A model generated the notes under the pieces. It saw only the letters and a program-made list of their open reading frames with translations, was not told where the DNA came from and ran no database searches. Made by a program: the position numbers and the translations under genes. A stretch of 32,000 bases of DNA, taken from assembly GCA_015256915.3 (NCBI GenBank), contig CP076101.2, positions 210,001 through 242,000 of the forward strand. Reading direction: 5' to 3'. This document shows, in pieces, positions 1 through 32,000 of this stretch. This DNA comes from Candidatus Saccharimonas sp. (GTDB taxonomy: Bacteria > Patescibacteriota > Saccharimonadia > Saccharimonadales > Saccharimonadaceae). Position 1 is the stretch's first letter, and each line of letters starts with the position of its first letter.

Positions 1-1028
1 ACTGGATTTTTTCGAAATCATTACAATTCTTTATCTTTTCTCTAATTTTATGTGTAGCTCTTGCAGGTTTAGCGTTGTTTAATCTTCCTCCTGTAATTTG
101 TGAAAATGGAGCTTGTCGCTGGTTTGGCTTTTCTGGTTTCAGTTTTCAGCAAGCTGAGTTTTTAAAGATTGGCGTGATTTTGCTTCTTTCAACTTTCCTT
201 GGCGCTCAAGCTTCGAATGGAAAAATCAACAGTTATAAAGAAACGATTCTACCGGCTTCAGTTGTGATTATTGCGGTGCTTTTGGTGATTGCTGGTTTTC
301 AAAAAGATCTTGGAACGGCAACGACAATTATTATCGCAATTGCATTTCAGTTTATTATTGCAGGAATGAAGTCTAAAAAATTAATTCCAATTGGTGTGTT
401 GGTTTTGGTTGGGGTTGTTCTTCTGATTGTTTTCGAACCTCATCGAATTTCTCGAATTTTAACTTTTTCGAGTGGCGATTGTAGCAACATTTTAACTGAA
501 AGTGGTAAAGATCAATACCATATTTGTAATGCAAAGCTCGCAATTGGCTCGGGCGGAGTTTTGGGCTTAGGGATTGGAAATTCAGTTCAATCTGCTGGCT
601 ATTTGCCTGAAACCATTAATGACTCAATTTTTGCCGTAATGGGAGAAATGTTTGGTTTTGTCGGTTTAATTTTTATTATTGCAATTTATTTCGGGCTGTT
701 TTATCAGCTTCTTGTAATTATTTCAAAAATGGAAAACCCCGCGAGCCGCCTTTTTGTGGCCGGTGTTGCTGGGTGGCTAGCTTCGCAAACAATTATTAAT
801 ATTGCAGCGATGGTTGGGCTATTTCCACTTAAAGGTATTACAATTCCGTTAATTTCTTATGGTGGAACGAGTTTGGTTGTTATTTTGACAGTTCTTGGTG
901 TTGTGTTTAATATTTCGAATTACACATCATTTACTCAAGTTGAAGATTTTAAGGAGGAAGGCAATGAAAATATTGGCAGTCGGCGGCGGGTCAGGCGGTC
1001 ACGTAGTTCCAATCGTGGCAGTTTTTAA
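1..1028 (+). CDS. ftsW: FtsW/RodA-type SEDS peptidoglycan polymerase, 5' end outside the window
   Basis: The frame is open from base 3, with no stop before the TTG at 75 used by the ORF track. Multi-TM protein with SEDS C-terminal motifs (GSGGVLGLGIGNS, YLPETINDSIFAVMGE, PLKGITIPLISYGGTS). Lies directly upstream of murG, as in dcw clusters. Confidence 0.85.
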   Translation, partial: WIFSKSLQFFIFSLILCVALAGLALFNLPPVICENGACRWFGFSGFSFQQAEFLKIGVILLLSTFLGAQASNGKINSYKETILPASVVIIAVLLVIAGFQKDLGTATTIIIAIAFQFIIAGMKSKKLIPIGVLVLVGVVLLIVFEPHRISRILTFSSGDCSNILTESGKDQYHICNAKLAIGSGGVLGLGIGNSVQSAGYLPETINDSIFAVMGEMFGFVGLIFIIAIYFGLFYQLLVIISKMENPASRLFVAGVAGWLASQTIINIAAMVGLFPLKGITIPLISYGGTSLVVILTVLGVVFNISNYTSFTQVEDFKEEGNENIGSRRRVRRSRSSNRGSF

Positions 1029-2121
1029 AGAAATTTTAAAGAAAAATCCAAAAGTAGAATTACATTTTTGGTGTGATAAAAAATTTGCACCACAGGCTAA
1101 AAAAATAATGACTGATTCTTTTGGTGAAAGAGTTAAAATTTCAAAAATTTCAAGTGGGAAATTTCGCCGCTACAATCACTTAACTTTTTGGCAGCATCTT
1201 ACAATTCCAAGTGTTGTTTTTGGTAATCTTATAGATATTTTTCGAAATATTGCCGGTATTTTTCAGTCTTTTTTCAAACTATTTTTTTGGCAACCAGATG
1301 TTATTTTCTGCAAAGGCGGGTTTGTTTGTGTTCCTGTTGGAATAAGCGCTTGGATTTTGAGAATTCCAATTGTAATTCATGATTCTGATGCTCACCCAGG
1401 TTTAGCTAATCGTATTATTTCAAAATTTGCTAAAAGAATTGCAACAGGCGCACCGCTCGAATTTTATAATTATCCAAAAGAAATTTCAAAATATGTTGGA
1501 ATTCCAGTACTTGAAAATTTTAAAAAATATAGCAAAAAAGAACAAGATAATTTTAAGGTTGAGCTCGGGTTTTCGAAAGATAAGCCTCTTGTTTTAGTTA
1601 CTGGTGGCGGTCTTGGTGCAGCTCGGCTTAATAATGCGGTAGTTTCGAAGGGTGAGGAACTTTCAAAATCTGCTCAAATTGTTCTAATCTCTGGCGTATC
1701 TCAATTTGATGAACTTAAGAGAAAAACTGAGGGATTTTCGAAGGATTTTTACTTGTTAAGTTTTGTATCAAAAGATATGTGGAAGTTTTTAGCTGCTGCA
1801 GATTTGGTTGTTGCTCGGGCTGGTGCAACTTCCAACCTTGAACTTGCCGCGCTTCACAAGCCAACAATCCTTGTTCCAAATGCAAGATTAACGGGCGGGC
1901 ATCAATTAAAAAATGCGCAGGTTTATCAAAAATCTAATGCTGTTAAGATTGTTTCTGACGATGAAATTGAAAAAAATCCAGAAATTCTTTCAGATGAAAT
2001 TTTGAGAACTTTAGAGAATCCAGAAGAAATGCTTAAGCTTGGTAAAGAATTTAGTAAATTTGCTAAGCCTAATGCTGCTAAAGATGTTACGGAAATGATT
2101 TTTGAAGCCGCAAAGCTATAA
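964..2121 (+). CDS. murG: UDP-N-acetylglucosamine:lipid I GlcNAc transferase MurG
   Basis: ATG at 964 lies 6 nt after AAGGAGG (951-957). N-terminal MKILAVGGGSGGHVVP loop, with TGGGLGA, ARAGATS.LE and GGHQ..NA motifs typical of MurG. The TTG at 895 in the ORF track lies upstream of the RBS and inside ftsW. Confidence 0.9.
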   Translation: MKILAVGGGSGGHVVPIVAVFKEILKKNPKVELHFWCDKKFAPQAKKIMTDSFGERVKISKISSGKFRRYNHLTFWQHLTIPSVVFGNLIDIFRNIAGIFQSFFKLFFWQPDVIFCKGGFVCVPVGISAWILRIPIVIHDSDAHPGLANRIISKFAKRIATGAPLEFYNYPKEISKYVGIPVLENFKKYSKKEQDNFKVELGFSKDKPLVLVTGGGLGAARLNNAVVSKGEELSKSAQIVLISGVSQFDELKRKTEGFSKDFYLLSFVSKDMWKFLAAADLVVARAGATSNLELAALHKPTILVPNARLTGGHQLKNAQVYQKSNAVKIVSDDEIEKNPEILSDEILRTLENPEEMLKLGKEFSKFAKPNAAKDVTEMIFEAAKL

Positions 2122-2136
2122 AAAATATTGAGCTTA

Positions 2137-2145
2137 TGATATAAT
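2137..2145 (+). promoter_or_regulatory. Extended -10 element TGATATAAT, 9 nt upstream of the ftsQ-like ATG
   Basis: TGnTATAAT at 2137-2145. The -35 is weak (TATAAA, 2117-2122). There is no Shine-Dalgarno sequence before ATG 2155, and an in-frame TAG at 2152-2154 excludes an earlier start. Confidence 0.4.
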
Positions 2146-2154
2146 TATAGTTAG

Positions 2155-3030
2155 ATGAAAGAAGAAAAAAACTTAACTCGACGCGAAATGCGCGAAAAAA
2201 TTTTAGAAGAACGCTCGAGAGAGAAGGGTGATTTTCGGCGTGGAAAAACAATTTCACGGCATCAAAAAGAGCATTCTGAGCGTTTAGAAAATCAAAAATT
2301 AGTTATTCGCCGAAGAAAGCTAGGCGCTTTTTTCGTGATTTTAGCTATTTTTATAAGTTTAATTTCTATATTTTTATTCCAGTTTATTTCTAAGGTTTCA
2401 GTAGTTTCAAATGAGTCGAAAAGTCAAAATTTAAGTAAATATGAAAAATCGGTTGAAGAATATTTAAATATAAATCCGAGTGAACGAATCTTATTAAATT
2501 TAAATAAAAACGCTTTACTTGAAAGCCTTCAAAAAGATTATCCAGAAGTATTATCTATTTCGGATATTAAATTTAATAGTTTAACCTCATATAAAATTTA
2601 TCTTGATTTTCGAAAACCTGTTGCTTCTTGGTTGGTTGATGGTAAAGAATTTTTCGTTGATTCTGAAGGTGTATCTTTTAATATTAATAATTTTGAAAAA
2701 CCGTCACTAAATATAATTGATGATAGCGGTGCTATAGTTTCTAACGGTAAAAATGTTGCAAGCAGTAGCTTTTTTAGCTTTATTGGAAAACTAGTTTCTG
2801 CTGCAAACAAACAGGGGCTAGAGATTTCGAAAATTCGTATTCCGCCCCTTAGTTTACGACAGGTTGAAGTTTCTGTAAAAGGTGTAAGTTACTTTGCGAG
2901 GATGTCGACAGCCGATTCTGCAGAAGGGCAAATTATTAACTTTAAAAAGGCTATTGAATATTTTGGAACTCATAAAATTTCACCAAATTACATAGATCTA
3001 AGGATTGAAGGAAAAGGTTATTATAAATAA
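2155..3030 (+). CDS. ftsQ: FtsQ/DivIB-like cell division protein
   Basis: Basic N-terminus, a single TM (LGAFFVILAIFISLISIFLFQFI), then a POTRA-like segment (ISDIKFNSLTSYKIYLDFRKPVASWLVDGKEFFVDSEGVSF). Position after murG matches dcw cluster order. Confidence 0.6.
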   Translation: MKEEKNLTRREMREKILEERSREKGDFRRGKTISRHQKEHSERLENQKLVIRRRKLGAFFVILAIFISLISIFLFQFISKVSVVSNESKSQNLSKYEKSVEEYLNINPSERILLNLNKNALLESLQKDYPEVLSISDIKFNSLTSYKIYLDFRKPVASWLVDGKEFFVDSEGVSFNINNFEKPSLNIIDDSGAIVSNGKNVASSSFFSFIGKLVSAANKQGLEISKIRIPPLSLRQVEVSVKGVSYFARMSTADSAEGQIINFKKAIEYFGTHKISPNYIDLRIEGKGYYK

Positions 3031-3049
3031 TAACAAAAAAGAGAAGAGG

Positions 3050-3066
3050 TTTGTTCGCTTTTTGTT
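3050..3066. repeat. Left arm of a 17-bp perfect inverted repeat (TTTGTTCGCTTTTTGTT)
   Basis: Exact reverse complement of 3805-3821. The two arms sit at the two edges of the AT-rich island between ftsQ and the DUF3048 gene. Confidence 0.6.
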
Positions 3067-3078
3067 CTATGCTATAAT
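3050..3078 (+). promoter_or_regulatory. Possible promoter firing into the AT-rich spacer
   Basis: TTGTTC (3051-3056), 16-nt spacer, extended -10 TGCTATAAT (3070-3078). No ORF follows for about 450 nt. Confidence 0.3.
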
Positions 3079-3452
3079 TAAGAATAAGAAGAGCAGGGAA
3101 AAATATAAAAAACATATTATAATATTAAAAAATAAAAAAGTCAAATTGTCAAAAAATAAATAAGGTAGGGGTGTGGAAAATTATTTTTTATCTGTCAGAA
3201 AAGATGAATATTTGAGAAATTAAGCTCAAAGAATTTTTAAATTATATAAGGAAAATATTTTTTGTAATTCCCGCTCTTTCCTTGTTAATAATTTACTTGA
3301 TTATAATCTATATGGATTTATTTTATATAAATTCTTTTTGTGGAATATAATAAAATAAGCCCTACGCAGTATAAATACAAATAGTAATATTTAAGTTTAT
3401 ATTTAAGAGTTATTTTTACATATAATGTCGTAAAAGATATATTGTGCGACCC

Positions 3453-3480
3453 TTGACATAAATTCTCTTTTTGATATAAT
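3453..3480 (+). promoter_or_regulatory. Near-consensus sigma70-type promoter of the 77-aa ORF
   Basis: TTGACA (3453-3458), 16-nt spacer, TGATATAAT (3472-3480). AAGGA sits about 9 nt before ATG 3531. Confidence 0.7.
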
Positions 3481-3530
3481 GTCCTTGTAAATATAAAATA
3501 ATTTTAATAAAATATAAGGAAAAAAATTTT

Positions 3531-3764
3531 ATGAACAAGAATCAATTAAATGAAGATAATATTATTTCAGCAGTTGCCCGCGTAGCTCTTAAAACCCAAG
3601 AATCACCAAAAACTGGTAATCTATATACTACTATAACTCTACATTTTAAAAACGGTCTTGAAATCCGTTATTTTGTAGATCCTAAAGATAAATTTGGTCT
3701 TAAAGATGCTATTTCTCGAATATCTCAATCAGATAAAATTGATAATTTTCTAAATGAGGACTAA
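3531..3764 (+). CDS. Hypothetical small soluble protein (77 aa)
   Basis: ATG with an AAGGA RBS, a consensus promoter upstream and a hairpin downstream. No TM segment, and I recognise no family. Confidence 0.55.
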   Translation: MNKNQLNEDNIISAVARVALKTQESPKTGNLYTTITLHFKNGLEIRYFVDPKDKFGLKDAISRISQSDKIDNFLNED

Positions 3765-3791
3765 CAGCTTATGTGAAACTTAAACTGTTAG
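3761..3791. terminator. Weak hairpin between the convergent 77-aa ORF and the DUF3048 gene
   Basis: CTAACAG (3761-3767) pairs with CTGTTAG (3785-3791). The loop is 17 nt and there is no clear U-run, so this is weak. Confidence 0.3.
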
Positions 3792-3804
3792 CCCAAAAAT
3801 CGCA

Positions 3805-3821
3805 AACAAAAAGCGAACAAA
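3805..3821. repeat. Right arm of the 17-bp inverted repeat (AACAAAAAGCGAACAAA)
   Basis: Exact reverse complement of 3050-3066. Confidence 0.6.
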
Positions 3822-3835
3822 AATAGAATACGTGT

Positions 3836-5014
3836 TTACTGCCAGCCTATTGAGCCCGTTGAATTTCCGACGGTAACAATCCAAGATTGGCCTCGATTTA
3901 TTTTAAAATTTGAACCATCATTATTTTGTAAAATCAATGGGGAGCCTTCGCTTAATTTTATCCATTTTACCTCTTGAGCTACTCCATCTTGAAATACAAT
4001 CGCTTCTCCACTACCAATATTTCTGTAGGTATTATGATATCGGTCTGCAGCTAGCTTGTTTTCCATTTTTAAAACAATTAGGGATTTAGTTGAGATTTGA
4101 GTTCCATTCGCATCTGTATGAGTAACTCCGGCCTGACTTCGCAAATAGCAATTACAGTTTTCTTGGTAAACATAGGTTGAATTATAAGAAAAACCTGAAA
4201 TATTAACCTGAATTTGGGTTGCATTTTTATCTTTTGCTGGTGAATCTTCTTTTCGACTAAAACCTTCAAAATTCGAAGAATTCCAACCCTTCGAAGAGCC
4301 TAATGCTGATAAATTTGTAAAATTCGTATAGACATTATGAGGTGCATAGCGATTTTTTGAACGCCAAAAGGTTTGCGTATTTAAGAATTCATCCATATCT
4401 TTATGTTTGCCGTCTCGCATTCTTGCCAAAGCGTCTCCCGGGCCACCAACATGAGCAATCGAGGCATCAAATCCTGAAGCCCAATCAATATAATAACCGC
4501 GAACGCTCCTAACGGGCCCTAATAGCTTAGGCTTATTTTGCTGATATAGAGCCAAGAAACGTGTAATTCCACCTTCAGCTATTGCTTCGAAAACGACTTC
4601 AGCTTGGCTTAGTCCAGATTGCGGTCTTGCTGGAATTGAGTTTTCAATCATAACACCAAAGACTGGTGCATTTTCGAGTGATTTTTCAGAAACCTCAACT
4701 CCAGATAATTTTGAATAAAATTTTTCTGGTTTAGCTTTCTTTTTTGGTTCGGTTTTTTGGCTTTTTGGGTCTAGATTTTTCACGGGTGCGCTTTCTGGTT
4801 TTCTAAAAAAGAACAAAAAGCTAAAAATAGTAACCAAAACTAAAAATATTATACCAATAATTAAACTAATTTTTTGTTTTTTTGATAATTTCGAAAGTAA
4901 AAAACGTGATTTTTTAGGATTCTCTAATAAAGCTTTCTCTTTTTGAGGATTTTTCTTTATTTTTTCAATATTTTTCTCGGCTTTATCTTGGCGAGTTCTC
5001 TTCATTTCAATCAT
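3836..5014 (-). CDS. DUF3048 (YerB-like) membrane-anchored protein
   Basis: N-terminal TM anchor, then the DUF3048 core (VFGVMIENSIPARPQSGLSQAEVVFEAIAEGGITRFLALYQ, GPVRSVRGYYIDWA). Confidence 0.8.
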   Translation of the reverse strand: MIEMKRTRQDKAEKNIEKIKKNPQKEKALLENPKKSRFLLSKLSKKQKISLIIGIIFLVLVTIFSFLFFFRKPESAPVKNLDPKSQKTEPKKKAKPEKFYSKLSGVEVSEKSLENAPVFGVMIENSIPARPQSGLSQAEVVFEAIAEGGITRFLALYQQNKPKLLGPVRSVRGYYIDWASGFDASIAHVGGPGDALARMRDGKHKDMDEFLNTQTFWRSKNRYAPHNVYTNFTNLSALGSSKGWNSSNFEGFSRKEDSPAKDKNATQIQVNISGFSYNSTYVYQENCNCYLRSQAGVTHTDANGTQISTKSLIVLKMENKLAADRYHNTYRNIGSGEAIVFQDGVAQEVKWIKLSEGSPLILQNNDGSNFKINRGQSWIVTVGNSTGSIGWQ

Positions 5015-7315: not shown

Positions 7316-8638
7316 TTATTTTTTCGATAAATCAATTAAAAATTTTACACCAATCTTACTCTTTTCTATTTTATATTTGATTTTGTAATTTGTTAAAATA
7401 TTTTTAACGATATAAAGTCCAAATCCACTACCCTTTTCTTTATTTAGGTCAAAATTTGTTTCAAAAATTTTAGCATTTCTGCTGTCTTTAATTTTCTGAT
7501 TTGAATTTTCAATATAAAACCAGTTATTCTTGACGCCAATATTTATTTGACCGTTTTGGTTGGAATGTTTTACGGCATTACTCACTAAATTTGAAAGAAT
7601 GATTTCTAATGCTGTTTCGCCAATATAAATTTCTTCTTGGCTCAGCTGGTTGTCTATTGAGATATTTTTTTGCTCGGCTAATAATTTATAGTTATCTAAA
7701 ACCTTTTGTAATACTTTATTGATATTGATAAGCTTCTCGTCATTTTTTATATTTTCGAATGAAGAGGTTGATAATATTTGAGCAATATTTTGAGTTAGCT
7801 GGTCAACGATATTAAGACAATCTTCAATAGATTTCTCTTTATTTTTATATTTACCAATGCCATATTTCATATTTTCGAGAATTATTTTGAGGCTTGCTAA
7901 TGGGGTTTTTAACTCGTGGGAAGTTCCTCTAAAAAACTCGCTTTTTAGTTTTTCGAGTTTAGTGATTTCTTGGTTTTTGATTTCTAGGCCATCAATTGAT
8001 TTTATAAGTGTTGAATATAAATCATTTATTTGGCTTTTTAGAGCGCCAACTTCATTTGTGGAATTAACTTTCAGCTTAGCATTTCGGTTAAGTTTCATCA
8101 TTTGAGCAGTTGTGGTTTTGATTTCATTGATATTCTTGGTTATAATTTTGGCGTATACTAAAGAAACGATAATTGAAAAAATGAAAGAAAATAAGATTGA
8201 AATTGGTAAGAACTGAAAAGTTAGCTCTTTTGCGTCTTTATTCATATCTGTTGTTGAGATAAATTTAACCAGTATTTTTTCGTTAGAAGCGGTCTGAACT
8301 TCTCTATCTTCAATAACTAAAGAGTTATTATTGCTGGTTAAATCTGCCTCAATCTGATTATCTATTTTAATTTCATTTAAATGTTCGTTATCTTTCACAA
8401 AAGCTTTAACTTTGCTACTTTTAGAATACAGCTCAAGTATTTGCTTGATACTTTCGATATTTTTTCCTTGGATATTCTTGGTGATTTGGTCTGCTTTTTG
8501 GGTGATTTCTTGCTTGCGGGTTTCAAGGTAGACTTTTGGAAAAATAAAATAAATTAATGCATGAATTAAAATAGCTAAAATACTCAATGTAGAAAATGTA
8601 TATAAAAACATCTTTGGAAAAATTTTCAAATTTCTCAT
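7316..8638 (-). CDS. Membrane sensor histidine kinase (two TM segments, roughly 110-aa extracytoplasmic loop)
   Basis: HisKA H-box FFRGTSHELKTPLASL, N-box LSNLVSNAVKHS, G-box GSGFGLYIVKNIL. The 4-nt overlap with the upstream response regulator indicates co-translation. Confidence 0.88.
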   Translation of the reverse strand: MRNLKIFPKMFLYTFSTLSILAILIHALIYFIFPKVYLETRKQEITQKADQITKNIQGKNIESIKQILELYSKSSKVKAFVKDNEHLNEIKIDNQIEADLTSNNNSLVIEDREVQTASNEKILVKFISTTDMNKDAKELTFQFLPISILFSFIFSIIVSLVYAKIITKNINEIKTTTAQMMKLNRNAKLKVNSTNEVGALKSQINDLYSTLIKSIDGLEIKNQEITKLEKLKSEFFRGTSHELKTPLASLKIILENMKYGIGKYKNKEKSIEDCLNIVDQLTQNIAQILSTSSFENIKNDEKLININKVLQKVLDNYKLLAEQKNISIDNQLSQEEIYIGETALEIILSNLVSNAVKHSNQNGQINIGVKNNWFYIENSNQKIKDSRNAKIFETNFDLNKEKGSGFGLYIVKNILTNYKIKYKIEKSKIGVKFLIDLSKK

Positions 8639-9297: not shown

Positions 9298-9305
9298 CTT
9301 TTAAT

Positions 9306-9334
9306 ATTATATCACTTTATAGCGTCTACTTCAA
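9306..9334 (-). promoter_or_regulatory. Promoter of the response regulator/kinase operon, start codon 8 nt after the -10
   Basis: On the - strand: TTGAAG (9329-9334), 17-nt spacer, TGATATAAT (9306-9314), then 8 nt to ATG 9297. Confidence 0.6.
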
Positions 9335-9338
9335 AGAG

Positions 9339-9367: not shown

Positions 9368-9372
9368 GTTTT

Positions 9373-10749: not shown

Positions 10750-10763
10750 TATTTTACTCCCTT

Positions 10764-11402: not shown

Positions 11403-11411
11403 AATATTCTC

Positions 11412-12701: not shown

Positions 12702-12752
12702 TCTATCTCCTTTCACTTTAGTTTCATACTTAACTACATTTTATGATAGTTT

Positions 12753-13476: not shown

Positions 13477-13515
13477 TTTGTCCTTTCGAAAATCGCCCCA
13501 AGCGCGGGGCGAAAA

Positions 13516-14976
13516 TTATTGATTTTTTTGAATTCGAGCAAGTTTTTCGTCGCGTTTGCGTTCGCGTTTATTTTGTGTATCGGTAGCTTTTTTGAGCGCG
13601 CCAGAGTTTTTGTTGACTACTTTTTTACCAGCCGAAATTCTTGCACGGTTTTCTTTGATTTGTTTTTCATCTCTGAAAGAAAACTTAATCGGCGTGCCAG
13701 AATAATCGAAATTCTCGCGAATTAAGCGCTCCAAATATCGTTTATAGCTCCAATGAACAAATTTTAGATTTGATCCATGAATAATGAACCAAGGTGGGTT
13801 ACTATCACTTTGTGAAATGTAACGCAATTTTGGATGTGTATTCTTTAAACCTGCTGGCGGATGAGCTTGAGTTGCTTTTTGTAAAAGCTGATTTAAAATT
13901 GAAGTCTTTGCTTGTCTTGCACGGTTGCAGTGAACTTTCAAAATCAAATCATAAATTTTGGTCACATTCTGGCCAGTTTTCGAACTCGTAAAAATTAACG
14001 GAGCCCAAGGAGTAAATTTAAAATAATATGCGATTCGTGGCGCCAAAGCGTCGCGAGTGTAAGCATCTTTCCCTTCAACACTATCCCATTTCGAAACTAC
14101 GATAATCATCCCTTTTCCGGCATCATTAATTAAGCCAGCAATTCGTTGGTCAAGCTGAGTATTAAGTTCGTTTGCATCCATTAAAAGCAAACAAATATCG
14201 GCTTCGTCAATCGCATTTAAAGTTCGAAGCACACTGAATTTTTCAATTCCAACTTCTTGTTTGCCGGGTTTTCGCATTCCAGCTGTGTCGATAATTTCGA
14301 TAGTTTTTTCATTAAAGCGAATTTGCGTTTTGTTGGTATCACGCGTTGTTCCAGCAACATTTGCTACAATCGCCTGCTGTTTGCCCGCCATCGTATTGAA
14401 AAGATAGGATTTTCCAGCATTTGGGCGGCCGACTAAAGCCACACGAATTATATCTTTGTCGCGTTTTTCTTCTTTAACTTTTGGAATTTTTTCAGCAATT
14501 TCGGTCAAGAGTTCATCAACGCCAGCATTATGCTCGGCAGAAGTTCGAATAATCGGTTTAACACCAAGCCGCAAAAATTCTTCATTTGGTAAATTCCCTT
14601 TTAAGTCAGTTTTGTTCAAAACTAAAATTACTGGCTTTCGAGATTTTAAAGCCTTTTTTGCAATCAAGCGATCTTCATTTGAAAAAGGTTTAGTGCTATC
14701 AAGAACTACCAAAATCAATTCACTGGCGTCAACCGCGTCTTGAATTTGTTCTTGAATTGTAGCCTCAAACTCATCATTTGGGTCTTTTAAACCAGCTGTA
14801 TCGATCAGCCAAAAAGCCTGTTTTTTATAATTAACTTTACCAAGAACACTGTCGCGCGTCGTTCCGGCTTCTCGTGCAACAACGGCTTGCTGGGCACGAA
14901 TCATTCGGTTAAAAAGCGAAGATTTTCCAACATTCGCCTGACCAATAATTGCAACTTTAGGGAGATTTTTAGACAT
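13516..14976 (-). CDS. der: Ribosome-associated GTPase Der/EngA with a basic C-terminal tail
   Basis: Two GTPase domains (GQANVGKSSLFN and GRPNAGKSYLFN, each with DTAG and NK.D), then a KH-like domain. About 45 extra K/R-rich residues at the C-terminus. Confidence 0.92.
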   Translation of the reverse strand: MSKNLPKVAIIGQANVGKSSLFNRMIRAQQAVVAREAGTTRDSVLGKVNYKKQAFWLIDTAGLKDPNDEFEATIQEQIQDAVDASELILVVLDSTKPFSNEDRLIAKKALKSRKPVILVLNKTDLKGNLPNEEFLRLGVKPIIRTSAEHNAGVDELLTEIAEKIPKVKEEKRDKDIIRVALVGRPNAGKSYLFNTMAGKQQAIVANVAGTTRDTNKTQIRFNEKTIEIIDTAGMRKPGKQEVGIEKFSVLRTLNAIDEADICLLLMDANELNTQLDQRIAGLINDAGKGMIIVVSKWDSVEGKDAYTRDALAPRIAYYFKFTPWAPLIFTSSKTGQNVTKIYDLILKVHCNRARQAKTSILNQLLQKATQAHPPAGLKNTHPKLRYISQSDSNPPWFIIHGSNLKFVHWSYKRYLERLIRENFDYSGTPIKFSFRDEKQIKENRARISAGKKVVNKNSGALKKATDTQNKRERKRDEKLARIQKNQ

Positions 14977-15014: not shown

Positions 15015-15025
15015 ACTTTTCGAAA

Positions 15026-16368: not shown

Positions 16369-16397
16369 ATTGTATAATTTTTCGAAATAAAAATCAA
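16369..16397 (-). promoter_or_regulatory. Promoter of the MATE-like gene, start codon 8 nt after the -10
   Basis: On the - strand: TTGATT (16392-16397), 17-nt spacer, TACAAT (16369-16374), then 8 nt to ATG 16360. Confidence 0.5.
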
Positions 16398-17005: not shown

Positions 17006-17698
17006 TTACAGCTTTTCAACTTTTCGAAAATCACCAAAATTTAAATCTTTCGGTAAAATATATGAGCCAAAAACTGTTCTGTGTAGTTCTTCAACTTCGT
17101 AGCCTATAGCCGAAAATGTTCGGCGAATCTGGCGGTTGCGACCTTCACTCATGATAACTTTCCAGTTTTTTCGCGAATCATCAAGCCGTTCAAGCCCAAG
17201 CTGTGATTTTCCGTCTGGTAGGTTAATTCCAAAATCGGCAATCATCTGTTGATGGATTGGCTGAAGCGGCGTGTCAAGAGAAACTAGATATTCTTTTACC
17301 TTTCGAAATTTTGGGTGGGTCATTTGAAAAGCAAAATCGCCATCATTTGTTAAGAGTAAAATTCCACTTGAATCTTTATCGAGCCGACCAACTGGTTTTA
17401 GCACGCTAAATTCTTTTGGGAGAATAGCATAAATTGTTTCATTCTCACCCTGTTTTTTCCGCGAGCAAACATAGCCGCGAGGCTTATTAAAAATTACATA
17501 TTTTTTTTCTTCACGAGTTTTTGAGATTATTTTTTCGCCGAGCTTTATTTCATCGCCTGCTTTGAATCGTTCACCGAGTTGAGCAGTTTTTCCGTTGATA
17601 GAAATTCGCCCTTTTTCGATAAGTTCATCTGCTTGCCTACGCGAAATTCCTAGCTGTAATGCCAGGAATTTATTTAAGCGTTCTGTTTTTTGCTCCAC
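17006..17698 (-). CDS. RsuA/RluB-family pseudouridine synthase
   Basis: N-terminal S4 domain (RLNKFLALQLGISRRQADELIEKGRISING) and catalytic motif GRLDKDSSGILLLTNDG. Confidence 0.87.
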   Translation of the reverse strand: MEQKTERLNKFLALQLGISRRQADELIEKGRISINGKTAQLGERFKAGDEIKLGEKIISKTREEKKYVIFNKPRGYVCSRKKQGENETIYAILPKEFSVLKPVGRLDKDSSGILLLTNDGDFAFQMTHPKFRKVKEYLVSLDTPLQPIHQQMIADFGINLPDGKSQLGLERLDDSRKNWKVIMSEGRNRQIRRTFSAIGYEVEELHRTVFGSYILPKDLNFGDFRKVEKL

Positions 17699-18670: not shown

Positions 18671-18720
18671 ATTGCTCCTATTATACTATTATTTTTCGAA
18701 AAAATCTATACTATTTATGC

Positions 18721-21549: not shown

Positions 21550-21600
21550 TTCTTCCACCTCCAAAGCGTTTTTTCTTTCGAAAATTCGATAGATTTTATA

Positions 21601-23412: not shown

Positions 23413-23460
23413 TTTATCCTTTCGAAAGTTGAAACCTCAGCATTAAAGCCGAGGTTCTGG

Positions 23461-24981
23461 TTATTTTTTAGCTTGATTATTTTGTGCGGCTGCGATTTTT
23501 GCGGCACGCGGATCTTCAGTTTTAAGATAAATTTTTGGGAAAAGTAAGCCGATTTCTTCGTCGCGAATTACGCCACTACTAAAAATCGTTTGAAGCTTTT
23601 CGGCCGTATCTGGCATAAACGGTTCAAGCATTTTGCTGATTTGTAATAAACCTGACACAGAGTGCGCAAGAACTTCTGCTAGATGATTTTCTTCATCTTT
23701 ATTTTCTTTTGCTTTCTTGGCAATTTCCCAAGGTTTTACACCTTCAATATATTGATTATGGGCGCGAACCAATCCCCAAATTTCATCAATCGCTTTATTG
23801 AATTCTAGAGATTTCATATACTCGTTGTAAGTATGGCGATCGTGCTCATCGCTAGGAATTTCACCAACCACGCCAGATTGATAACGCTTAACCATATTAG
23901 CTACGCGTGAAGCCAAATTGCCGAGGTCGTTACCAAGTTCGTTGTTGTAGGCATTTTCGAACTTCTCCCAGGTAAAATCTCCATCATCTTGAGTTGCAAC
24001 GTGCCGTGAGAAATAATACCTAAAAGCATCTAGTCCGTAATTATTGATAATTTCGTTCGGATCAACCACATTGCCGATCGATTTACTCATTTTCACACCG
24101 TTGCTTGAAATGTGGCCATGAACAAGCAGAGTTTTTGGTAAAGCTAAATCAAGCCCAAGTAGCATTGCTGGCCAGATTCCCGCATGAAAACGTAAAATAT
24201 CTTTTCCAATAACTTGAACATTTGCTGGCCAAAATTCTTGCCAACCTGCAACATCTGGGTATCCGATCACGGTTAAATAGTTTGCAAGTGCATCAATCCA
24301 AACATACATTACTTGTTCCGGATCGCCAGGAACAGGTACACCCCAAGTTAAATTCTTTTTTGGTCGTGAAATTGAAACATCTTCAAGCCCGCCTTTCAAG
24401 AAGTTTAAAAATTCTTTCTTGCGATATTCTGGCACGATTTTCATTCGGTCAGTTTCAATGGCTTCAATGATTTTTGGTGTAAATTCTGAAATTCGCAAGT
24501 AATAATTCTCTTCTGAAAGCCTTTCGAAAGGTTTTTGATGGTTTGGGCAAACGCCATGAAATTCAGTTACTTCTTTTTCAGTGTAAAAACTCTCACAACC
24601 TGTACAATACCATCCTTCGTAAGTATTTTTATAAATATATGGCTGAAGTTTCATCCAAATATATTGTGATGCTCCGACATGGTGTAAATCTGTTGTTCGA
24701 ACAAAATCGGTGTAAGTTGTTTTCATTTTGTCCATCAAATTTTTGAAATTCTGAACAGTTCCGTCAACATATTCTTGTGGAGTTAAACCATTTTCGGCGG
24801 CTTTTTCAGCAATTTTATTACCGTGCTCATCTGTTCCAACCTGAAAACGTACTTCATTTCCTTGCTGGCGCTGGTATCTCGCCCAAATATCGGCAATTAA
24901 GTAATCAAGAGCGTTTCCAATATGAGGCGCTCCATTTGCATAAGGAATTGCAGTTGTTATATAAAGTTTTTTCTTCGTCAT
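23461..24981 (-). CDS. metG: Methionyl-tRNA synthetase
   Basis: HIGH-type motif (PYANGAPHIGNA) and KMSKS. Start placed at ATG 24981 (MTKKKLYITT), because the promoter lies within the longer ORF-track version. Confidence 0.92.
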   Translation of the reverse strand: MTKKKLYITTAIPYANGAPHIGNALDYLIADIWARYQRQQGNEVRFQVGTDEHGNKIAEKAAENGLTPQEYVDGTVQNFKNLMDKMKTTYTDFVRTTDLHHVGASQYIWMKLQPYIYKNTYEGWYCTGCESFYTEKEVTEFHGVCPNHQKPFERLSEENYYLRISEFTPKIIEAIETDRMKIVPEYRKKEFLNFLKGGLEDVSISRPKKNLTWGVPVPGDPEQVMYVWIDALANYLTVIGYPDVAGWQEFWPANVQVIGKDILRFHAGIWPAMLLGLDLALPKTLLVHGHISSNGVKMSKSIGNVVDPNEIINNYGLDAFRYYFSRHVATQDDGDFTWEKFENAYNNELGNDLGNLASRVANMVKRYQSGVVGEIPSDEHDRHTYNEYMKSLEFNKAIDEIWGLVRAHNQYIEGVKPWEIAKKAKENKDEENHLAEVLAHSVSGLLQISKMLEPFMPDTAEKLQTIFSSGVIRDEEIGLLFPKIYLKTEDPRAAKIAAAQNNQAKK

Positions 24982-24991
24982 ACTGCTTATA

Positions 24992-25020
24992 ATTATATCA
25001 TAAAATTCAAATAAAAACAA
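24992..25020 (-). promoter_or_regulatory. Promoter of metG-tatD, start codon 10 nt after the -10
   Basis: On the - strand: TTGTTT (25015-25020), 17-nt spacer, TGATATAAT (24992-25000), then 10 nt to ATG 24981. Confidence 0.5.
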
Positions 25021-25033
25021 AAGCCCAAGAGTT

Positions 25034-25658
25034 TTAGGCTTCCTGACAATAAGCTCCGCCGGATTCTAGTAAATATACAACTGCGGCCGCTCCTTTTTTT
25101 ATGTTTCTCAGTACAACTGATCTATTTGATGCTAGTTCTATATTATCACACCCCATACCAACTACTACTGCAATTCTTTCGTGATCCCTAAAACTAGGAC
25201 TATCTATTCTAAAGAGTGTAACATTATTGTTGACTGATGTTGTGACAATTTTAGTATTTAAACTTAAGCTCGAAGAACTATCGTTTTTATTTTTACCACT
25301 CTTAAGATCAAAACTAATATAGCTATTTAAAGGGCTATTCTCTATTGGTTCAATACTGTTATTTACTCCGTATTTTTTCTGTTCTTCATTTAGATCTGCT
25401 AGCGGTGTTAATACACTATTCCCCATACTTGCATATCCTCGCCCTTTATTATTAGCTTTCCAATTGTGCAGGGCTGTCACGACCATTGCGACATCTTGCT
25501 TTCGCTGCACGTCTCTCTGTGATCGTTGAAGTGCTGGTAAAGCCAAAAATACCATTAAAAATATTAGACCAGCTATAGCCAATACTAAAACAACTTCAAT
25601 GATTGTAAATCCCTTTTTTGGTTAAGTTTTGATTTTTGTTGAGTTTGATTGCTTTCAT
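25034..25658 (-). pseudogene. Type IV pilin (PilA-like) whose leader and mature parts are in different frames at an A6 run
   Basis: ATG 25658 opens MKAIKLNKNQNLTKK, then reaches a stop after the A6 run (T6 at 25614-25619 on the + strand). Removing one A gives MKAIKLNKNQNLTKK-G/FTIIEVVLVLAIAGL, a canonical prepilin. The C-terminus has a Cys pair (GMGC...YC). Confidence 0.7.
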
Positions 25659-25664
25659 AACTCA

Positions 25665-25692
25665 ATTATATTACTAATATTGTAAAAAGCAG
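25665..25692 (-). promoter_or_regulatory. Possible promoter of the frameshifted pilin, start codon 6 nt after the -10
   Basis: On the - strand: CTGCTT (25687-25692), 16-nt spacer, TATAAT (25665-25670), then 6 nt to ATG 25658. Confidence 0.35.
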
Positions 25693-25699
25693 TAGCGCT

Positions 25700-26593
25700 T
25701 TATTTACTATAGAATATTTTTGAAATTTTAAGCCATTCTTCTATTTTAAGGTCTTGTGCTCGCAAATCTGGCGAAATCTCGCATTTTTCTAAAATTTCAG
25801 TTGTTCGCTCTTTCGAAATTGCAAGATTAGCACTCAAACTTTTGGCAATTTTTTTGCGTTTTGCGGCAAAGCCAGCTTTTACAATTCGAAAAAATTCCCT
25901 TTCAGAAATTTTACAATTATTTTTCGAATTAAAAATTTCAATCAGATTTTGTTCGCGACTTTTCAAAACTACCACTTGCGAATCCACTTTTGGCGGCGGT
26001 GTAAATAACTCTCGTGGTACAAATTGGCCAAGTTCGCAATTCGCATAGATCTGTGAGGCGATTGATAAAACACTTAAATCGCCAGATTTCGCACAAATTC
26101 TCTCAGCAACTTCTTTTTGTACCAAAAGTGCGGCAATACTTGGTTTATTATCGCTAGTAAGTAATTTTTCAACAATTTTTGAAGTAATATAATACGGTAC
26201 GTTTGCGGCAACTTTATAATTTTTTGGCAATTTTGAAAGATCGAAATCCAAAAAATCCGTATTTTTTACGGTTAAATTTTTCCCTGGGAATTGCGCTGGT
26301 AGTTTTTTTGCCAAATTTTCATCAAACTCGATTGAGAGAACTTCACCATCTTTACCTGCAAATTTTAAAAGTGAAGAAGTTAAAGTTCCGAGCCCAGGGC
26401 CGATTTCAAGTACAAAATCACCATTTTTAATTTCAGCTTCTTCTGCAATCCCATCTAGAACAATCCTATCTCGCAACCAGTGCTGACCAAGTGATTTATT
26501 ATTTTTTAAGTTTAAATTTTCGCTATTTTTAGCTTTTTTCGAAAACTTTTTACCAGATTTTTGATTAAATTTCAAATTTGCCACTAATACCAA
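25700..26593 (-). CDS. rsmA: 16S rRNA (adenine1518/1519-N6)-dimethyltransferase RsmA/KsgA
   Basis: LGQHWL, SAM motif VLEIGPGLGTLT, and NVPYYITS. It has a basic N-terminal extension of roughly 35 aa. The start is uncertain (TTG 26593 or GTG 26584) and overlaps the upstream gene. Confidence 0.9.
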   Translation of the reverse strand: MVLVANLKFNQKSGKKFSKKAKNSENLNLKNNKSLGQHWLRDRIVLDGIAEEAEIKNGDFVLEIGPGLGTLTSSLLKFAGKDGEVLSIEFDENLAKKLPAQFPGKNLTVKNTDFLDFDLSKLPKNYKVAANVPYYITSKIVEKLLTSDNKPSIAALLVQKEVAERICAKSGDLSVLSIASQIYANCELGQFVPRELFTPPPKVDSQVVVLKSREQNLIEIFNSKNNCKISEREFFRIVKAGFAAKRKKIAKSLSANLAISKERTTEILEKCEISPDLRAQDLKIEEWLKISKIFYSK

Positions 26594-29997: not shown

Positions 29998-30012
29998 TTT
30001 TTTTCGAAAATA

Positions 30013-30027: not shown

Positions 30028-30516
30028 ATGAAAAATCACGCTTATTCTGATAAAAATCTTGAAGAATTTTTGCAAAAACATTTTGGTGTTAATTTTGGAA
30101 TTGAAGAAGTTATTTTGCGTAATCTTTCGGTTGGATATTCAGCCGAAGCTACAATTTTCAAAAGCAAAAAAGGTCGTGTTTATGCTTTTATTTCGCTTGA
30201 AGCTCGTGCAACTTTGGGCGATATTCAATATATTCTTTCAAAAATGAACTTAAAACCAGCTTTTTTCTTTCCGCCAAGCGGTTTCGAAAACTATTTTTAT
30301 GACCGTGCTAAGGTGCAATTCTTAGAAGTATTTCCGGGGCGCCACGATGTAAAAGATGAAGAGCTGCGATATTACAAAAAACGCGTGCTTTATAACCCCG
30401 CCCTTGTTGAAATTTCTGAAATTCGCGATGGTGAAATTCGCTGTTTTAATGCTGATTCTATTGGTTCGTGGCGAACAGCTCAAAGGTATTCGTACAAAAA
30501 AATTTTAATGAAATAA
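30028..30516 (+). CDS. Hypothetical protein (162 aa)
   Basis: Clean ORF filling the gap between pcrA and the pilin locus. I recognise no family. Confidence 0.6.
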   Translation: MKNHAYSDKNLEEFLQKHFGVNFGIEEVILRNLSVGYSAEATIFKSKKGRVYAFISLEARATLGDIQYILSKMNLKPAFFFPPSGFENYFYDRAKVQFLEVFPGRHDVKDEELRYYKKRVLYNPALVEISEIRDGEIRCFNADSIGSWRTAQRYSYKKILMK

Positions 30517-30556
30517 ATTAAAATTGTGGAAAACTAAAAAATCCTCAAAAAAATGC

Positions 30557-30585
30557 TTGCAAAATTATTATGCTTATGTTTTAAT
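30557..30585 (+). promoter_or_regulatory. Promoter of pilin A
   Basis: TTGCAA (30557-30562), 17-nt spacer, TGTTTTAAT (30577-30585). The -10 box lies inside the inverted repeat and the -35 lies outside it. Confidence 0.55.
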
Positions 30586-30804
30586 GGTTGCATACGGACA
30601 GACCGTAAATAAAAATAACAATAATAATCGTTCATTAGAAAGGTGGATTTTCAGTATGAACTCAATTAATAAAAATAATAAAAAAGGTTTCACAATCATC
30701 GAAGTTGTGCTTGTGCTTGCCATTGCCGGACTTATCTTCTTGATGGTATTCCTAGCGCTACCTGCTCTACAACGAAGCCAACGAGATACGCAACGAAAGA
30801 ATGA
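30571..30804. repeat. Left arm of the 234-bp inverted repeat (pilin -10 box, 5' UTR, codons 1-49)
   Basis: Reverse complement of 31684-31917. My base-by-base comparison gives 231/234 identical, with mismatches at 30597, 30599 and 30602. Confidence 0.9.
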
Positions 30805-31126
30805 TGCTTCACGATTGCGCGCAGCAGTAACAGACTACACTTCAAACAACCGAGGAAAATTGCCTTGGGATGGAGCAGCTCCAAAGCCTGATTTTATTAG
30901 TAAATATATCACAACAAATAATACAACAACATTTAATGATCCTTCAACAAACTCTCAATATACAATTGCAACTGCTACTGGAGCTACAGATGCTCCAACT
31001 GCACTTGGACAAATGAAGGTTTCCAACAACGCTAAATGTGGTACAGACGGAGCTATCGTAGCTGGTAATGGAATCGCTGTTTCTGTAAAAACTGAAAATG
31101 GCGTTGCAAACTGCGTTGAAGGTTAG
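30656..31126 (+). CDS. Type IV pilin (PilA-like), paralogue A
   Basis: MNSINKNNKK-G/FTIIEVVLVLAIAGLIFLMVF is a class III signal peptide with Gly-1, Phe+1 and Glu+5. RBS GAAAGGTGGA. C-terminal Cys pair (KCGTDG...NCVEG). The ORF-track start at 30524 lies upstream of the promoter. Confidence 0.88.
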   Translation: MNSINKNNKKGFTIIEVVLVLAIAGLIFLMVFLALPALQRSQRDTQRKNDASRLRAAVTDYTSNNRGKLPWDGAAPKPDFISKYITTNNTTTFNDPSTNSQYTIATATGATDAPTALGQMKVSNNAKCGTDGAIVAGNGIAVSVKTENGVANCVEG

Positions 31127-31147
31127 TATTTAATCTATAAAACTTAA

Positions 31148-31181
31148 TTAAATAACTCTCTTCGGGGAGTTATTTAATTTT
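31148..31181 (+). terminator. Intrinsic terminator of pilin A
   Basis: TTAAATAACTC (31148-31158) pairs with GAGTTATTTAA (31167-31177). Two further pairs close a TTCG tetraloop, and TTTT follows. Confidence 0.75.
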
Positions 31182-31257
31182 GCGAAAGTATTCTATTGGC
31201 TTAATAGTAAGTTTGTTTTAGCACTATTGGATGCTGAGAAGTATTTTACACCACAAT

Positions 31258-31294
31258 AAAAAAACGGCTTCCTTAACGAAAAGCTGTTTTTTTT
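31258..31294 (-). terminator. Bidirectional A7-hairpin-T8 terminator downstream of pilin B
   Basis: ACGGCTT (31264-31270) pairs with AAGCTGT (31281-31287), flanked by an A-run and a T-run. One position is G-U on the + strand and A:C on the - strand. Confidence 0.5.
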
Positions 31295-31307
31295 ATTAAG
31301 ATTATAT

Positions 31308-31832
31308 CTAGTTATTTACGCAGTAGGATCCACCAGCTTCTAGAATTATTCGAAGGGCTACTTTACCATTGCTTCCTTCTTCTATTCTTACTCCATTTGG
31401 CTGTGATGGATCACATATTCCATTTGCTGACCATTCAATAGCTATAACTTCTGCATAGTCATCATATTCCATTTTTTGTGGAGTTCTGTCGAACACTGCA
31501 TAGTTTCGTCCGCTTGGATCCTTCATCTCCTCGCCATCTTTGAATAAATAATTTTTTATAAATCCTGTTGCACCACTATCTTTATTTGGGAAATCTCCTA
31601 AAGTTCTTTCTCCGTGATTAGATGGTAACTTTCCTTTATTAGCGGCTCTATATTCATTTACTGCTGCTAGTATTTTACTTAGGTCATTCTTTCGTTGCGT
31701 ATCTCGTTGGCTTCGTTGTAGAGCAGGTAGCGCTAGGAATACCATCAAGAAGATAAGTCCGGCAATGGCAAGCACAAGCACAACTTCGATGATTGTGAAA
31801 CCTTTTTTATTATTTTTATTAATTGAGTTCAT
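31308..31832 (-). CDS. Type IV pilin (PilA-like), paralogue B
   Basis: The first 50 aa are identical to paralogue A, and the C-terminal domain is unrelated, with a Cys pair (GICDPS...SYCVNN). Confidence 0.9.
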   Translation of the reverse strand: MNSINKNNKKGFTIIEVVLVLAIAGLIFLMVFLALPALQRSQRDTQRKNDLSKILAAVNEYRAANKGKLPSNHGERTLGDFPNKDSGATGFIKNYLFKDGEEMKDPSGRNYAVFDRTPQKMEYDDYAEVIAIEWSANGICDPSQPNGVRIEEGSNGKVALRIILEAGGSYCVNN

Positions 31833-31917
31833 ACTGAAAATCCACCTTTCTAATGAACGATTATTATTGTTATTTTTATTTACGGCCTATACGTATGCAA
31901 CCATTAAAACATAAGCA
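31684..31917. repeat. Right arm of the 234-bp inverted repeat
   Basis: Reverse complement of 30571-30804. Confidence 0.9.
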
Positions 31918-31931
31918 AGATAAAAAATCAA
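31903..31931 (-). promoter_or_regulatory. Promoter of pilin B
   Basis: On the - strand: TTGATT (31926-31931), 17-nt spacer, TGTTTTAAT (31903-31911). The -35 lies outside the repeat and differs from that of pilin A. Confidence 0.55.
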
Positions 31932-32000
31932 TATCTTTAAATATTTTATTGATTTTTAATTTCTAGAATAATTAAGTTTTCAATATGTGGCGTTCGTGGA

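Follow-up and report, generated by a model that had tools for sequence, protein, structure and literature searches.

TTCGAA, a highly iterated palindrome of one G6 clade of Saccharibacteria

Introduction

Over-represented palindromes are rare, and highly iterated palindrome 1 (HIP1) has been unexplained for about 30 years. A similar question is raised by a stretch of 32,000 bp from Candidatus Saccharimonas sp. (contig CP076101.2, positions 210,001 to 242,000), hereafter the window. Throughout this stretch the hexamer TTCGAA, which BstBI/AsuII-type restriction-modification systems recognise as TT^CGAA, recurs about three times per kb. Why is this word so frequent here, and what kind of protein could be reading it? 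The excess is 3-4 fold over the expectation from protein, codon or dinucleotide content, concerns every reading frame as well as the spacers, and is found in relatives down to ~75% identity. In one G6 clade of Saccharibacteria, tiny bacteria that live as parasites in the mouth and gut, TTCGAA constitutes a highly iterated palindrome, and its form TTTCGAAA is softly preferred. The reading favoured here, to which a probability of roughly 40% is given, is that the word may be a HIP-like and presumably methylated mark of resident DNA, whose density would be balanced between the decay of its CpG and a favoured re-creation of the site.

The excess of TTCGAA has its cause in the DNA

The window holds exactly 98 TTCGAA sites. 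An earlier note on this DNA, made by eye, had arrived at about 100 (give or take 10), or one per ~320 bp, where a random sequence would give about ten; both figures stand, as base composition alone predicts 10.7 sites and the ratio of observed to expected (O/E) is 9.1. The "ten-fold" excess that it announced is accurate against base composition only, since dinucleotide-preserving shuffles give 24.8 sites (standard deviation 5.2, maximum 34; O/E 4.0) and codon-preserving shuffles leave a 3.1-fold excess. Markov models of increasing order expect 38 (order 2, O/E 2.6), 53 (order 3, O/E 1.8) and 86 sites (order 4, O/E 1.14). The fourth-order check that had been proposed therefore returns a value near 1, but this does not refute the excess because the pentamers TTCGA and TCGAA are mostly TTCGAA itself. 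The higher-order models were set aside as circular and replaced by shuffles that preserve the codons.

In these shuffles, synonymous codons were permuted inside each of the 29 called genes, so that the protein and the codon usage were kept, and 1000 permutations were made. They yield 27.6 +/- 4.5 sites (maximum 45), while 87 are observed in the genes (O/E 3.15, z 13). The three codon phases are equally affected, with 23, 27 and 37 sites observed and 8.0, 9.9 and 9.6 expected, each about 3-fold, and the spacers outside the called genes are as dense as the genes (3.5 and 3.0 per kb, respectively). Among all 4096 hexamers evaluated against this null, TTCGAA ranks first (z 13.3). The next places are taken by TCGAAA and TTTCGA, which overlap with it, and the best hexamer that is unrelated to it reaches a z of 5.4. 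The flanks beyond the window are rich as well, with 33 sites in 10 kb and 30 in 8 kb.

The same cause is visible in the choice of codons. Phe-Glu pairs are written TTC-GAA in 23 of 40 cases, whereas TTC accounts for 21% of Phe elsewhere. Arg in the context xTT_Axx is encoded by CGA in 27 of 33 cases (23% elsewhere), and Ser in the context xxT_AAx by TCG in 37 of 91 (7% elsewhere). The recruitment of TCG and CGA codons that had been reported from the sequence is thus real and context-dependent, and since codon choice depends on the context the cause lies at the DNA level. Together, the codon shuffles, the three frames, the spacers and the codon choice support a DNA-level rather than a protein-level origin, as had been proposed. 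The frames given as examples are confirmed too: the site at 432 is in phase 0, those at 212 and 914 in phase 2 and that at 1241 in phase 1. An artefact of amino acid or codon content, in which a few abundant dipeptides in one frame would produce the excess, could appeal to the frequency of GAA (81% of Glu) and CGA (33% of Arg) in these genes. It is practically out of the question, being excluded by the codon-preserving shuffles (27.6 expected, 87 observed), by the equal excess in the three phases and by the density of the spacers; the earlier note had named an origin in a few dipeptides of one codon phase as what would refute its own reading.

As regards the extent of the word, a sequence logo shows the hexamer with a partial T at position -1 and a partial A at +1, and beyond these positions only background. 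T is present at -1 in 64-69% of the sites, against 43-52% in matched contexts. The description of the sites as "usually TTTCGAAA" was nonetheless overstated, as both flanking letters are present in only 45 of the 98. A repeat element such as a repetitive extragenic palindrome (REP) or a miniature inverted-repeat transposable element (MITE) was rejected, because nothing is conserved beyond +/-1; moreover, 87 of the 98 sites lie inside the 29 called genes. A TaqI-like TCGA core was also rejected, as TCGA outside TTCGAA is not enriched (87 observed, ~100 expected).

Rich, neutral and avoiding lineages occur in one family

A search with Der returned 57 loci, nearly all from Saccharibacteria, and motif densities were obtained from loci of roughly 20 kb. 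The closest of them are labelled Candidatus Saccharimonas, Nanogingivalaceae or Nanogingivalis, that is, clade G6 of Saccharibacteria (TM7), and the window comes from a genome of this clade (Nanogingivalaceae). In the closest group, at about 92% DNA identity to the window, TTCGAA is found at 2.2-3.7 per kb, and a second tier at 79-86% identity (L010, L013, L018, L021, L025 and L030) has 2.5-3.4 per kb. At about 75% identity, L023 and L024 have 3.7-4.2 per kb and L026 has 2.0. The lineage of L012, L015 and L020, whose RluB-like protein is 75% identical, is neutral, with ~0.67 per kb outside one imported segment. Lastly, L027, L028 (N. gingivitcus), L029 and L051, at 72-75% identity, have only 0.05-0.11 per kb. 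The density thus differs 40-60 fold inside one family. When the avoiding lineages are pooled, they hold 4 sites where ~20 are expected (p 2.4e-5), and TTCGAA is the most under-represented of the 64 palindromic hexamers. Since the top hexamer of one clade is the most avoided palindrome of its sisters, the excess is lineage-specific. In more distant Saccharibacteria the word occurs about as often as expected (O/E 0.83).

When der, pth and the RluB-like gene were aligned by codon, a few sites proved to be common to most of the motif-rich lineages sampled (three conserved ones are given in Table 1). Many gains are found in a single lineage only, and pth alone contains seven such sites of L023. At orthologous positions the avoiding lineages carry single variants that destroy the site, such as TCCGAA, TTAGAA, TTCGGA and TTCAAA, by changes that include CGA to AGA or CGG and TT to TC.

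The neutral lineage provides a further comparison. The der-pth segment of L012, L015 and L020 (~9983-12028) is 88-90% identical to positions 12946-14994 of the window, whereas the flanking syntenic genes are 71-80% identical, and this segment is rich in TTCGAA inside a motif-neutral genome. It has the appearance of a segment recently transferred by recombination between divergent lineages. A Der protein tree, initially considered for placing the lineages, was misleading because der-pth has been exchanged between them, and identities of the RluB-like protein were used instead.

Other palindromic hexamers are mildly to clearly high in distant Saccharibacteria (L036, L040, L034 and L044) against the dinucleotide expectation; GCCGGC, for example, is seen 29 times in L036 (GC 51%) where 8.4 are expected, and GTCGAC 19 times in L040 where 4.8 are expected. 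These may be further, different iterated palindromes of the phylum, as judged against the dinucleotide expectation only. Across distant GC-rich Saccharibacteria, GTCGAC is mildly high, with 135 occurrences against 65 expected from a first-order and 107 from a second-order Markov model.

Existing sites are retained through their outer letters

The turnover of the sites was followed over 21 kb of synteny aligned with nine relatives, in samples that are small (16-87 informative positions per class). At ~92% identity, the TTCGAA sites of the window are conserved in 78-87% of cases, compared with 59-68% for all hexamers and 48-61% for other NNCGNN words. At 73-79% identity the corresponding values are 47-58% for TTCGAA and 24-33% for all hexamers. 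The differences are mostly exchanges between TTCGAA and TTTGAA or TTCAAA, they occur in both directions, and gains are about equal to losses.

Conservation conditioned on the state of the window can be inflated, and the changes were hence polarised by three-taxon comparisons. The loss of sites inferred to be ancestral amounts to 0.1-0.65 of what controls with the same codon position and base would predict. The outer letters at third-codon positions changed in 4 of 87 cases, while the controls changed in 481 of 2676 (p 5e-4). Existing TTCGAA sites are therefore kept above matched controls, mainly via the outer T and A letters.

Holes, spacing and an inovirus-like element

The earlier note had described the density as uneven, with holes that might mark recently acquired DNA. 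Its coordinates are correct: there are no sites in 2832-4270 and 24711-25810, only one (31349) in 30290-32000, and exactly 10, where about 10 had been counted, in the block of two-component and ABC genes at 7316-12716. The unevenness itself does not go beyond chance. The gaps between sites in the window have a coefficient of variation of 0.91 and agree with an exponential distribution (Kolmogorov-Smirnov p 0.96), the largest gap is 1446 bp where simulations give a mean maximum of 1665 bp (P 0.69), the variance-to-mean ratio in 1-kb bins is 1.05, and the densities of the individual genes are homogeneous (chi2 27.8, df 28, p 0.48). The pilin gaps and the lower density of the two-component/ABC block are compatible with random placement. 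On statistical grounds the holes were accordingly rejected as real features, with the exception of the AT-rich island, which has an independent explanation and is the only hole for which the idea of acquired DNA holds, as it is the attachment site of a motif-poor element.

In the same-species strains L063 (about 11640-16790) and L064, a 5.15-kb element is inserted exactly at the AT-rich island. It is bounded by a direct repeat of ~30-48 nt, and its genes comprise one for a rolling-circle Rep (PF23343 REP_ORF2-G2P), one for a DUF2726 protein and some eight small open reading frames (ORFs). The element resembles the prophage of a filamentous, inovirus-like phage of Saccharibacteria, and the window has the empty site and a 77-aa ORF. 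The element region contains 1-2 TTCGAA in 5.95 kb (0.17-0.34 per kb), while its flanks have 3.5-3.95 per kb, a density at which ~21 sites would be expected. Because the element is poor in the word and its flanks are rich, the enrichment is a property of the resident chromosome rather than of mobile DNA. Eight related elements in IMG/VR (L066-L073) have ~0.2-0.7 TTCGAA per kb, close to the dinucleotide expectation. Avoidance of restriction by these elements was considered and set aside, as the counts are near neutral and the elements are small.

Comparison with known systems

The closest parallel seems to be HIP1 (GCGATCGC), which together with alternate highly iterated palindromes is found in cyanobacteria (Elhai 2015, PMC4390886; Xu et al. 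2018, PMC5861425). In these organisms the enriched word matches a resident orphan methyltransferase, DmtA/DmtC in the case of HIP1; the conservation of HIP1 sites has been taken as evidence for selection, and HIP1 is periodic along the chromosome, with periods of 10-90 kb. A preprint reports that methylated HIP1 raises the efficiency of natural transformation and draws a parallel with RAATTY/CtsM of C. jejuni (bioRxiv 10.1101/2024.09.10.611283). Like HIP1, TTCGAA is a short palindrome above expectation in all frames and between genes, is conserved above background in relatives and is restricted to certain lineages, others being without it; both words have the shape of a type II methyltransferase target. 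The features that mark a HIP-type word are thus found here, namely an excess over a codon-aware null, presence in all frames and spacers, and conservation above background, in this case carried by the outer positions. The two differ in phylum, Saccharibacteria being part of the Candidate Phyla Radiation, and in the word, which is an AT-rich 6-8-mer here and a GC-rich 8-mer in cyanobacteria. They also differ in the size of the excess, here 3-4 fold (9-fold against base composition) and 15-300 fold for HIP1, and in the avoidance of TTCGAA by sister lineages.

According to the summary given in the same preprint (bioRxiv 10.1101/2024.09.10.611283), RAATTY of Campylobacter jejuni is degenerate and occurs about every 60 bp. 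It resembles TTCGAA as a very frequent AT-rich palindromic hexamer, and in that account it is the target of an orphan methyltransferase linked to pilus-type competence. In contrast to RAATTY, for which the summary makes no comparison with chance expectation, TTCGAA is a specific word and is clearly above a codon-aware expectation.

Other systems share fewer features with the present one. The DNA uptake sequences (DUS) of Neisseria and the uptake signal sequences (USS) of Pasteurellaceae are non-palindromic 9-12-mers with an extended consensus and very large enrichment. As with these, TTCGAA reaches ~1 per kb or more in both the genes and the spacers of the core genome, is low in foreign DNA and has a family-level distribution, and the contrast between ~3 per kb in the core and 0.17-0.34 in the element is of the kind expected from an uptake sequence. 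However, a 9-12-bp non-palindromic core is absent; moreover, DUS and USS are more evenly spaced or located in terminators, and relatives do not avoid them. With BstBI/AsuII-type restriction-modification the word is identical, and the avoiding sisters (L027, L028, L029 and L051) behave like genomes exposed to such an enzyme, whereas in this clade the word is enriched and not under-represented, as a restriction target would be. Dcm and very-short-patch repair by Vsr bias CCWGG in E. coli, and here too a word above expectation exchanges with its deamination products. In contrast to that system, tests of the two signatures showed no protection of the central C and no depletion of the source words that contain T.

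Possible explanations

A reader of the methyltransferase or nuclease type is proposed because the word is a 6-bp palindrome, matches the BstBI/AsuII specificity and has been reported as an m6A (N6-methyladenine) motif in a metagenomic methylome. The avoidance in the sisters is a classic restriction footprint and hence supports a restriction-type reader. In the rich clade the word must be harmless, being enriched, which implies that a cognate nuclease is lacking, and it must somehow be favoured. A type II methyltransferase-type protein of BstBI/AsuII specificity would thus circulate in the family and read TTCGAA. In the avoiding lineages it would be paired with a nuclease, while in this clade it would be solitary, and the methylated site, as a tag of resident DNA, would have gained a use or come to propagate itself. 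Such a mark would serve a DNA transaction, for example transformation and recombination or the choice of strand in repair, in line with proposals made for HIP1 and for RAATTY/CtsM, and the decay of the CpG to TTTGAA or TTCAAA would be offset by favoured re-creation from these abundant neighbours. The turnover fits a force that reads the whole hexamer together with a CpG that either lacks protection or mutates unusually often, as is expected of a methylated cytosine.

Several results weigh against a methylated, HIP-like mark. The enrichment is modest, 3-4 fold compared with 15-300 fold for HIP1, and the spacing is Poisson-like, neither regular nor periodic within 32 kb. With tighter, context-matched controls the retention of the outer letters is weaker (3 of 82 changed, against 37 of 386; p 0.086). 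The central CG is unprotected, as its synonymous transitions (15 of 41) are as frequent as those of other CpGs (113 of 361; p 0.48), and selection on the whole site therefore needs the extra assumption of a hypermutable CpG. Gains from the pre-sites TTT|GAA and T|TCA|AA are ~3x those of controls (5 of 16, against 31 of 238), which is suggestive only (p 0.058). Furthermore, Pfam and NCBIfam scans of the window and ~18 kb of flanks, that is ~50 kb of a ~0.66-Mb genome, found no DNA methyltransferase or BstBI-like nuclease, and a catalytic-motif regular expression applied to ~1.2 Mb of fetched loci, mostly redundant copies of the same syntenic region, recovered nothing but a type III Mod, which belongs to a class of enzymes with asymmetric recognition sites. 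The methyltransferases in the window and its flanks act on rRNA only (KsgA, an Erm-like protein, RlmD and RsmH).

Of the four mechanisms listed in the earlier note, an orphan methyltransferase and an uptake signal emerge as the two best, with HIP1 and RAATTY as their analogues, while a Vsr-like repair is disfavoured. An uptake or transformation signal, in which a pilus or competence component would prefer TTCGAA and molecular drive would spread the sites, is rather unlikely as a separate explanation, and it overlaps with the methylated mark if the signal is read in its methylated form. The density is that of known uptake sequences (~1 per kb or more) in genes and spacers alike, the word is lacking from mobile DNA, and recombination across divergent lineages is indicated by the der-pth segment of L012, L015 and L020. 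There are precedents for palindromic, methylation-dependent signals in HIP1 of PCC 7002 and, as far as the summary cited above goes, in RAATTY of C. jejuni; pilin genes are present in the window, but nothing ties them to the motif. Classical uptake signals, on the other hand, are 9-12 bp long, non-palindromic and far more strongly enriched, where here 6-8 bp are specified, and the active avoidance by the sisters is a signature of restriction rather than an uptake dialect. Likewise, the neutral L012 lineage has imported a motif-rich segment without having a bias of its own, and a search of the literature found no paper linking Saccharibacteria with TTCGAA or with an uptake sequence, the G6 genome papers being silent on methylation and restriction. 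The fuller proposal is that in G6 a methylation tag on TTCGAA lets DNA be recognised as self during pilus-dependent uptake or recombination. The signal would derive from a BstBI-type restriction-modification system that lost its nuclease and whose methyltransferase was co-opted, while the system would still cause the avoidance in the sister lineages; this appears quite improbable.

A functionless, context-specific process of mutation or repair would do without selection on the word. It could consist of a Vsr-like T:G to C:G correction in TT(T/C)GAA accompanying a cytosine methyltransferase, or of the methyl-directed mismatch-repair ratchet that Elhai has modelled for HIP words. Such a process agrees with the exchange between TTCGAA and TTTGAA/TTCAAA in both directions at roughly equal rates, with the raised gains at pre-sites, and with the random spacing and uniform gene densities expected of something that acts genome-wide. 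It is nevertheless unlikely, as the protection lies at the outer letters while the CG decays at the ordinary CpG rate, and as the source words are not depleted (TTTGAA/TTCAAA O/E 0.88 in a first-order Markov model; 0.77 for TTTGAA and 1.45 for TTCAAA in the codon null); on these two grounds a Vsr-type drive is not supported. Nor is there an enrichment in the element integrated in these cells, though it may simply be young. Alternatively, an abundant protein that is associated with the nucleoid or organises the chromosome might bind TTCGAA or TTTCGAAA, whose density along the chromosome would then be under selection; a role in nucleoid structure has been proposed for HIP1. The constraint on the whole hexamer, its context of T- and A-tracts, and its presence throughout the chromosome and absence from mobile DNA are all in keeping with such a protein. 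This seems very unlikely, however, as the avoidance of the same word in the sisters would be left unexplained, the spacing has no period or regularity in 32 kb, and no candidate protein was identified.

Individual sites and neighbouring genes

The positions of all sites and of the associated features are collected in Table 1. The genes of the window are mostly of the housekeeping type (ftsW, murG, smpB, pth, der, metG, ksgA and pcrA), accompanied by two-component systems, ABC/FtsX transporters and pilins. All seven sites that had been assigned to spacers were placed correctly. A role of the spacer sites as promoter, terminator or Shine-Dalgarno elements was rejected, since their position is inconsistent and only three gene starts have the motif abutting AGGA. 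At these three starts (window 13477-13490 and 23413-23426, and ~6523 in L058) there is a module TTTCGAAAGGA(N)AAAA(T)ATG in which the palindrome abuts the Shine-Dalgarno AGGA, and two of the three are preceded by a terminator-like hairpin.

Table 1. Coordinates of the TTCGAA sites and of associated features in the window
Feature	Position	Strand	Remarks
TTCGAA enrichment domain	1..32000		98 sites, 3.06 per kb; in 26 of 29 called genes and in spacers
TTCGAA starts, part 1	11, 212, 432, 914, 1241, 1572, 1644, 1737, 2609, 2826, 4272, 4290, 4586, 4890		
TTCGAA starts, part 2	5310, 5355, 5498, 5598, 5689, 5838, 6059, 6301, 6610, 6985, 7061, 7754, 8923, 9099		
TTCGAA starts, part 3	9169, 9731, 10800, 11316, 11353, 12033, 12470, 13016, 13161, 13221, 13485, 13979, 14090, 14223		
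TTCGAA starts, part 4	14544, 15019, 15052, 15883, 15993, 16098, 16159, 16333, 16381, 16609, 16645, 16848, 17023, 17302		
TTCGAA starts, part 5	18143, 18695, 19309, 19768, 20201, 20573, 20872, 20890, 20976, 21577, 22020, 22335, 22919, 22996		
TTCGAA starts, part 6	23007, 23150, 23421, 23956, 24523, 24696, 25812, 25885, 25923, 26538, 26717, 27126, 27143, 27240		
TTCGAA starts, part 7	27343, 27539, 27619, 27804, 27875, 28659, 28683, 28865, 29375, 29481, 29520, 30003, 30283, 31349		
Conserved site in der	14223..14228		TGCGCA, TAAGAA or TTCGGA in avoiding lineages
Conserved site in der (TT-CGA-A phase)	14544..14549		In most motif-rich lineages sampled at this gene; TGCGAA in L023; TCCGAA or TTAGAA in avoiding lineages
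Conserved site in RluB-like gene	17302..17307		Also in L023, L024, L026 and L012; absent in all avoiding lineages
Spacer site	13485..13490		Abuts Shine-Dalgarno of pth (TTTCGAAAGGACAAAATG); just past a terminator-like hairpin
Spacer site	15019..15024		Upstream of der promoter-like region
Spacer site	16381..16386		14 nt upstream of MatE-like gene start
Spacer site	18695..18700		Between PAS histidine kinase and response regulator
Spacer site	21577..21582		GNAT gene 5' leader, downstream of TATAAT box
Spacer site	23421..23426		Abuts Shine-Dalgarno of tatD (TTTCGAAAGGATAAAATG); just past a hairpin
Spacer site	30003..30008		Divergent region between pcrA and pilin operon
AT-rich motif-free island	3031..3835		GC 24.5%; here the empty attachment site of the inovirus-like integrative element
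att-like repeat core (GAGGACTAACAGCTTATGTGAAA)	3756..3778	+	Single copy in window; one copy on either side of the element in L063
Motif-free gap	24702..25811		5' end of metG, frameshifted pilin-like gene, 3' end of ksgA; compatible with chance
Low-density stretch	30289..32000		Pilin pair; one site at 31349; compatible with chance

Some of the neighbouring loci vary between lineages. Between pth and the ABC/FtsX block, a type III restriction-modification pair is found in L002 (12133-16952), L001, L010 and L025, of which positions 12717-12915 of the window are the empty site. It consists of a Mod of ~650 aa (N6_N4_Mtase and an EcoP15I C-terminal domain) and an adjacent ORF of 955 aa, presumed to be Res; from its gene content this locus is a putative variable defence island. 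The adjoining block of the window at 7316-12716 (histidine kinase, OmpR-type regulator and FtsX/ABC/FtsX) is 91-95% identical to L030, where the neighbouring genes are 74-89% identical, and it can barely be aligned to L025 (47-57%). These identities suggest that the two-component/ABC cassette was recently exchanged, as a whole, between lineages. Several notable genes are located beyond the right end (L058 3000-5792 and 7825-8565) and the left end (L062 1-1892) of the window. They include a 930-aa VirD4/TraD-like coupling ATPase (DUF87, TrwB), an Erm-like second rRNA adenine methyltransferase, and KwaB of the Kiwa defence system adjoining a PIF1 helicase.

The pilin-like gene at 25034-25699 (- strand) is frameshifted within or next to an A run (ACCAAAAAAGGG), which separates the leader MKAIKLNKNQNLT from KKGFTIIEVVLV. 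The gene is intact (207 aa) in L059 (16202-16825) and L061, and a short form is present in L058 (16277-16798) and L060. The frameshift could be due to phase variation at the homopolymer or to an assembly error.

Implications for Saccharibacteria

The finding adds a HIP-type palindrome with a different word, from a different phylum and from a much smaller genome (~0.66 Mb), to those of cyanobacteria. In addition, rich, neutral and avoiding lineages stand side by side in one family, which is a natural comparative experiment on the HIP question, and contrasting the presence and absence of genes among these lineages should name the protein that reads TTCGAA. A complete G6 genome is available from JB001 (662 kb, GC 36.4%), and nanopore reads exist for complete G6 genomes, among them run SRX10387815 for CP072208. 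The density of TTCGAA is a clean marker that distinguishes resident from recently acquired DNA, having flagged both a prophage attachment site and a recombination import. If TTCGAA does act in self-recognition, the Candidate Phyla Radiation would have its first example of a signal for uptake or transformation. Moreover, if its methylation affects transformation, this would matter for the genetic manipulation of Saccharibacteria.

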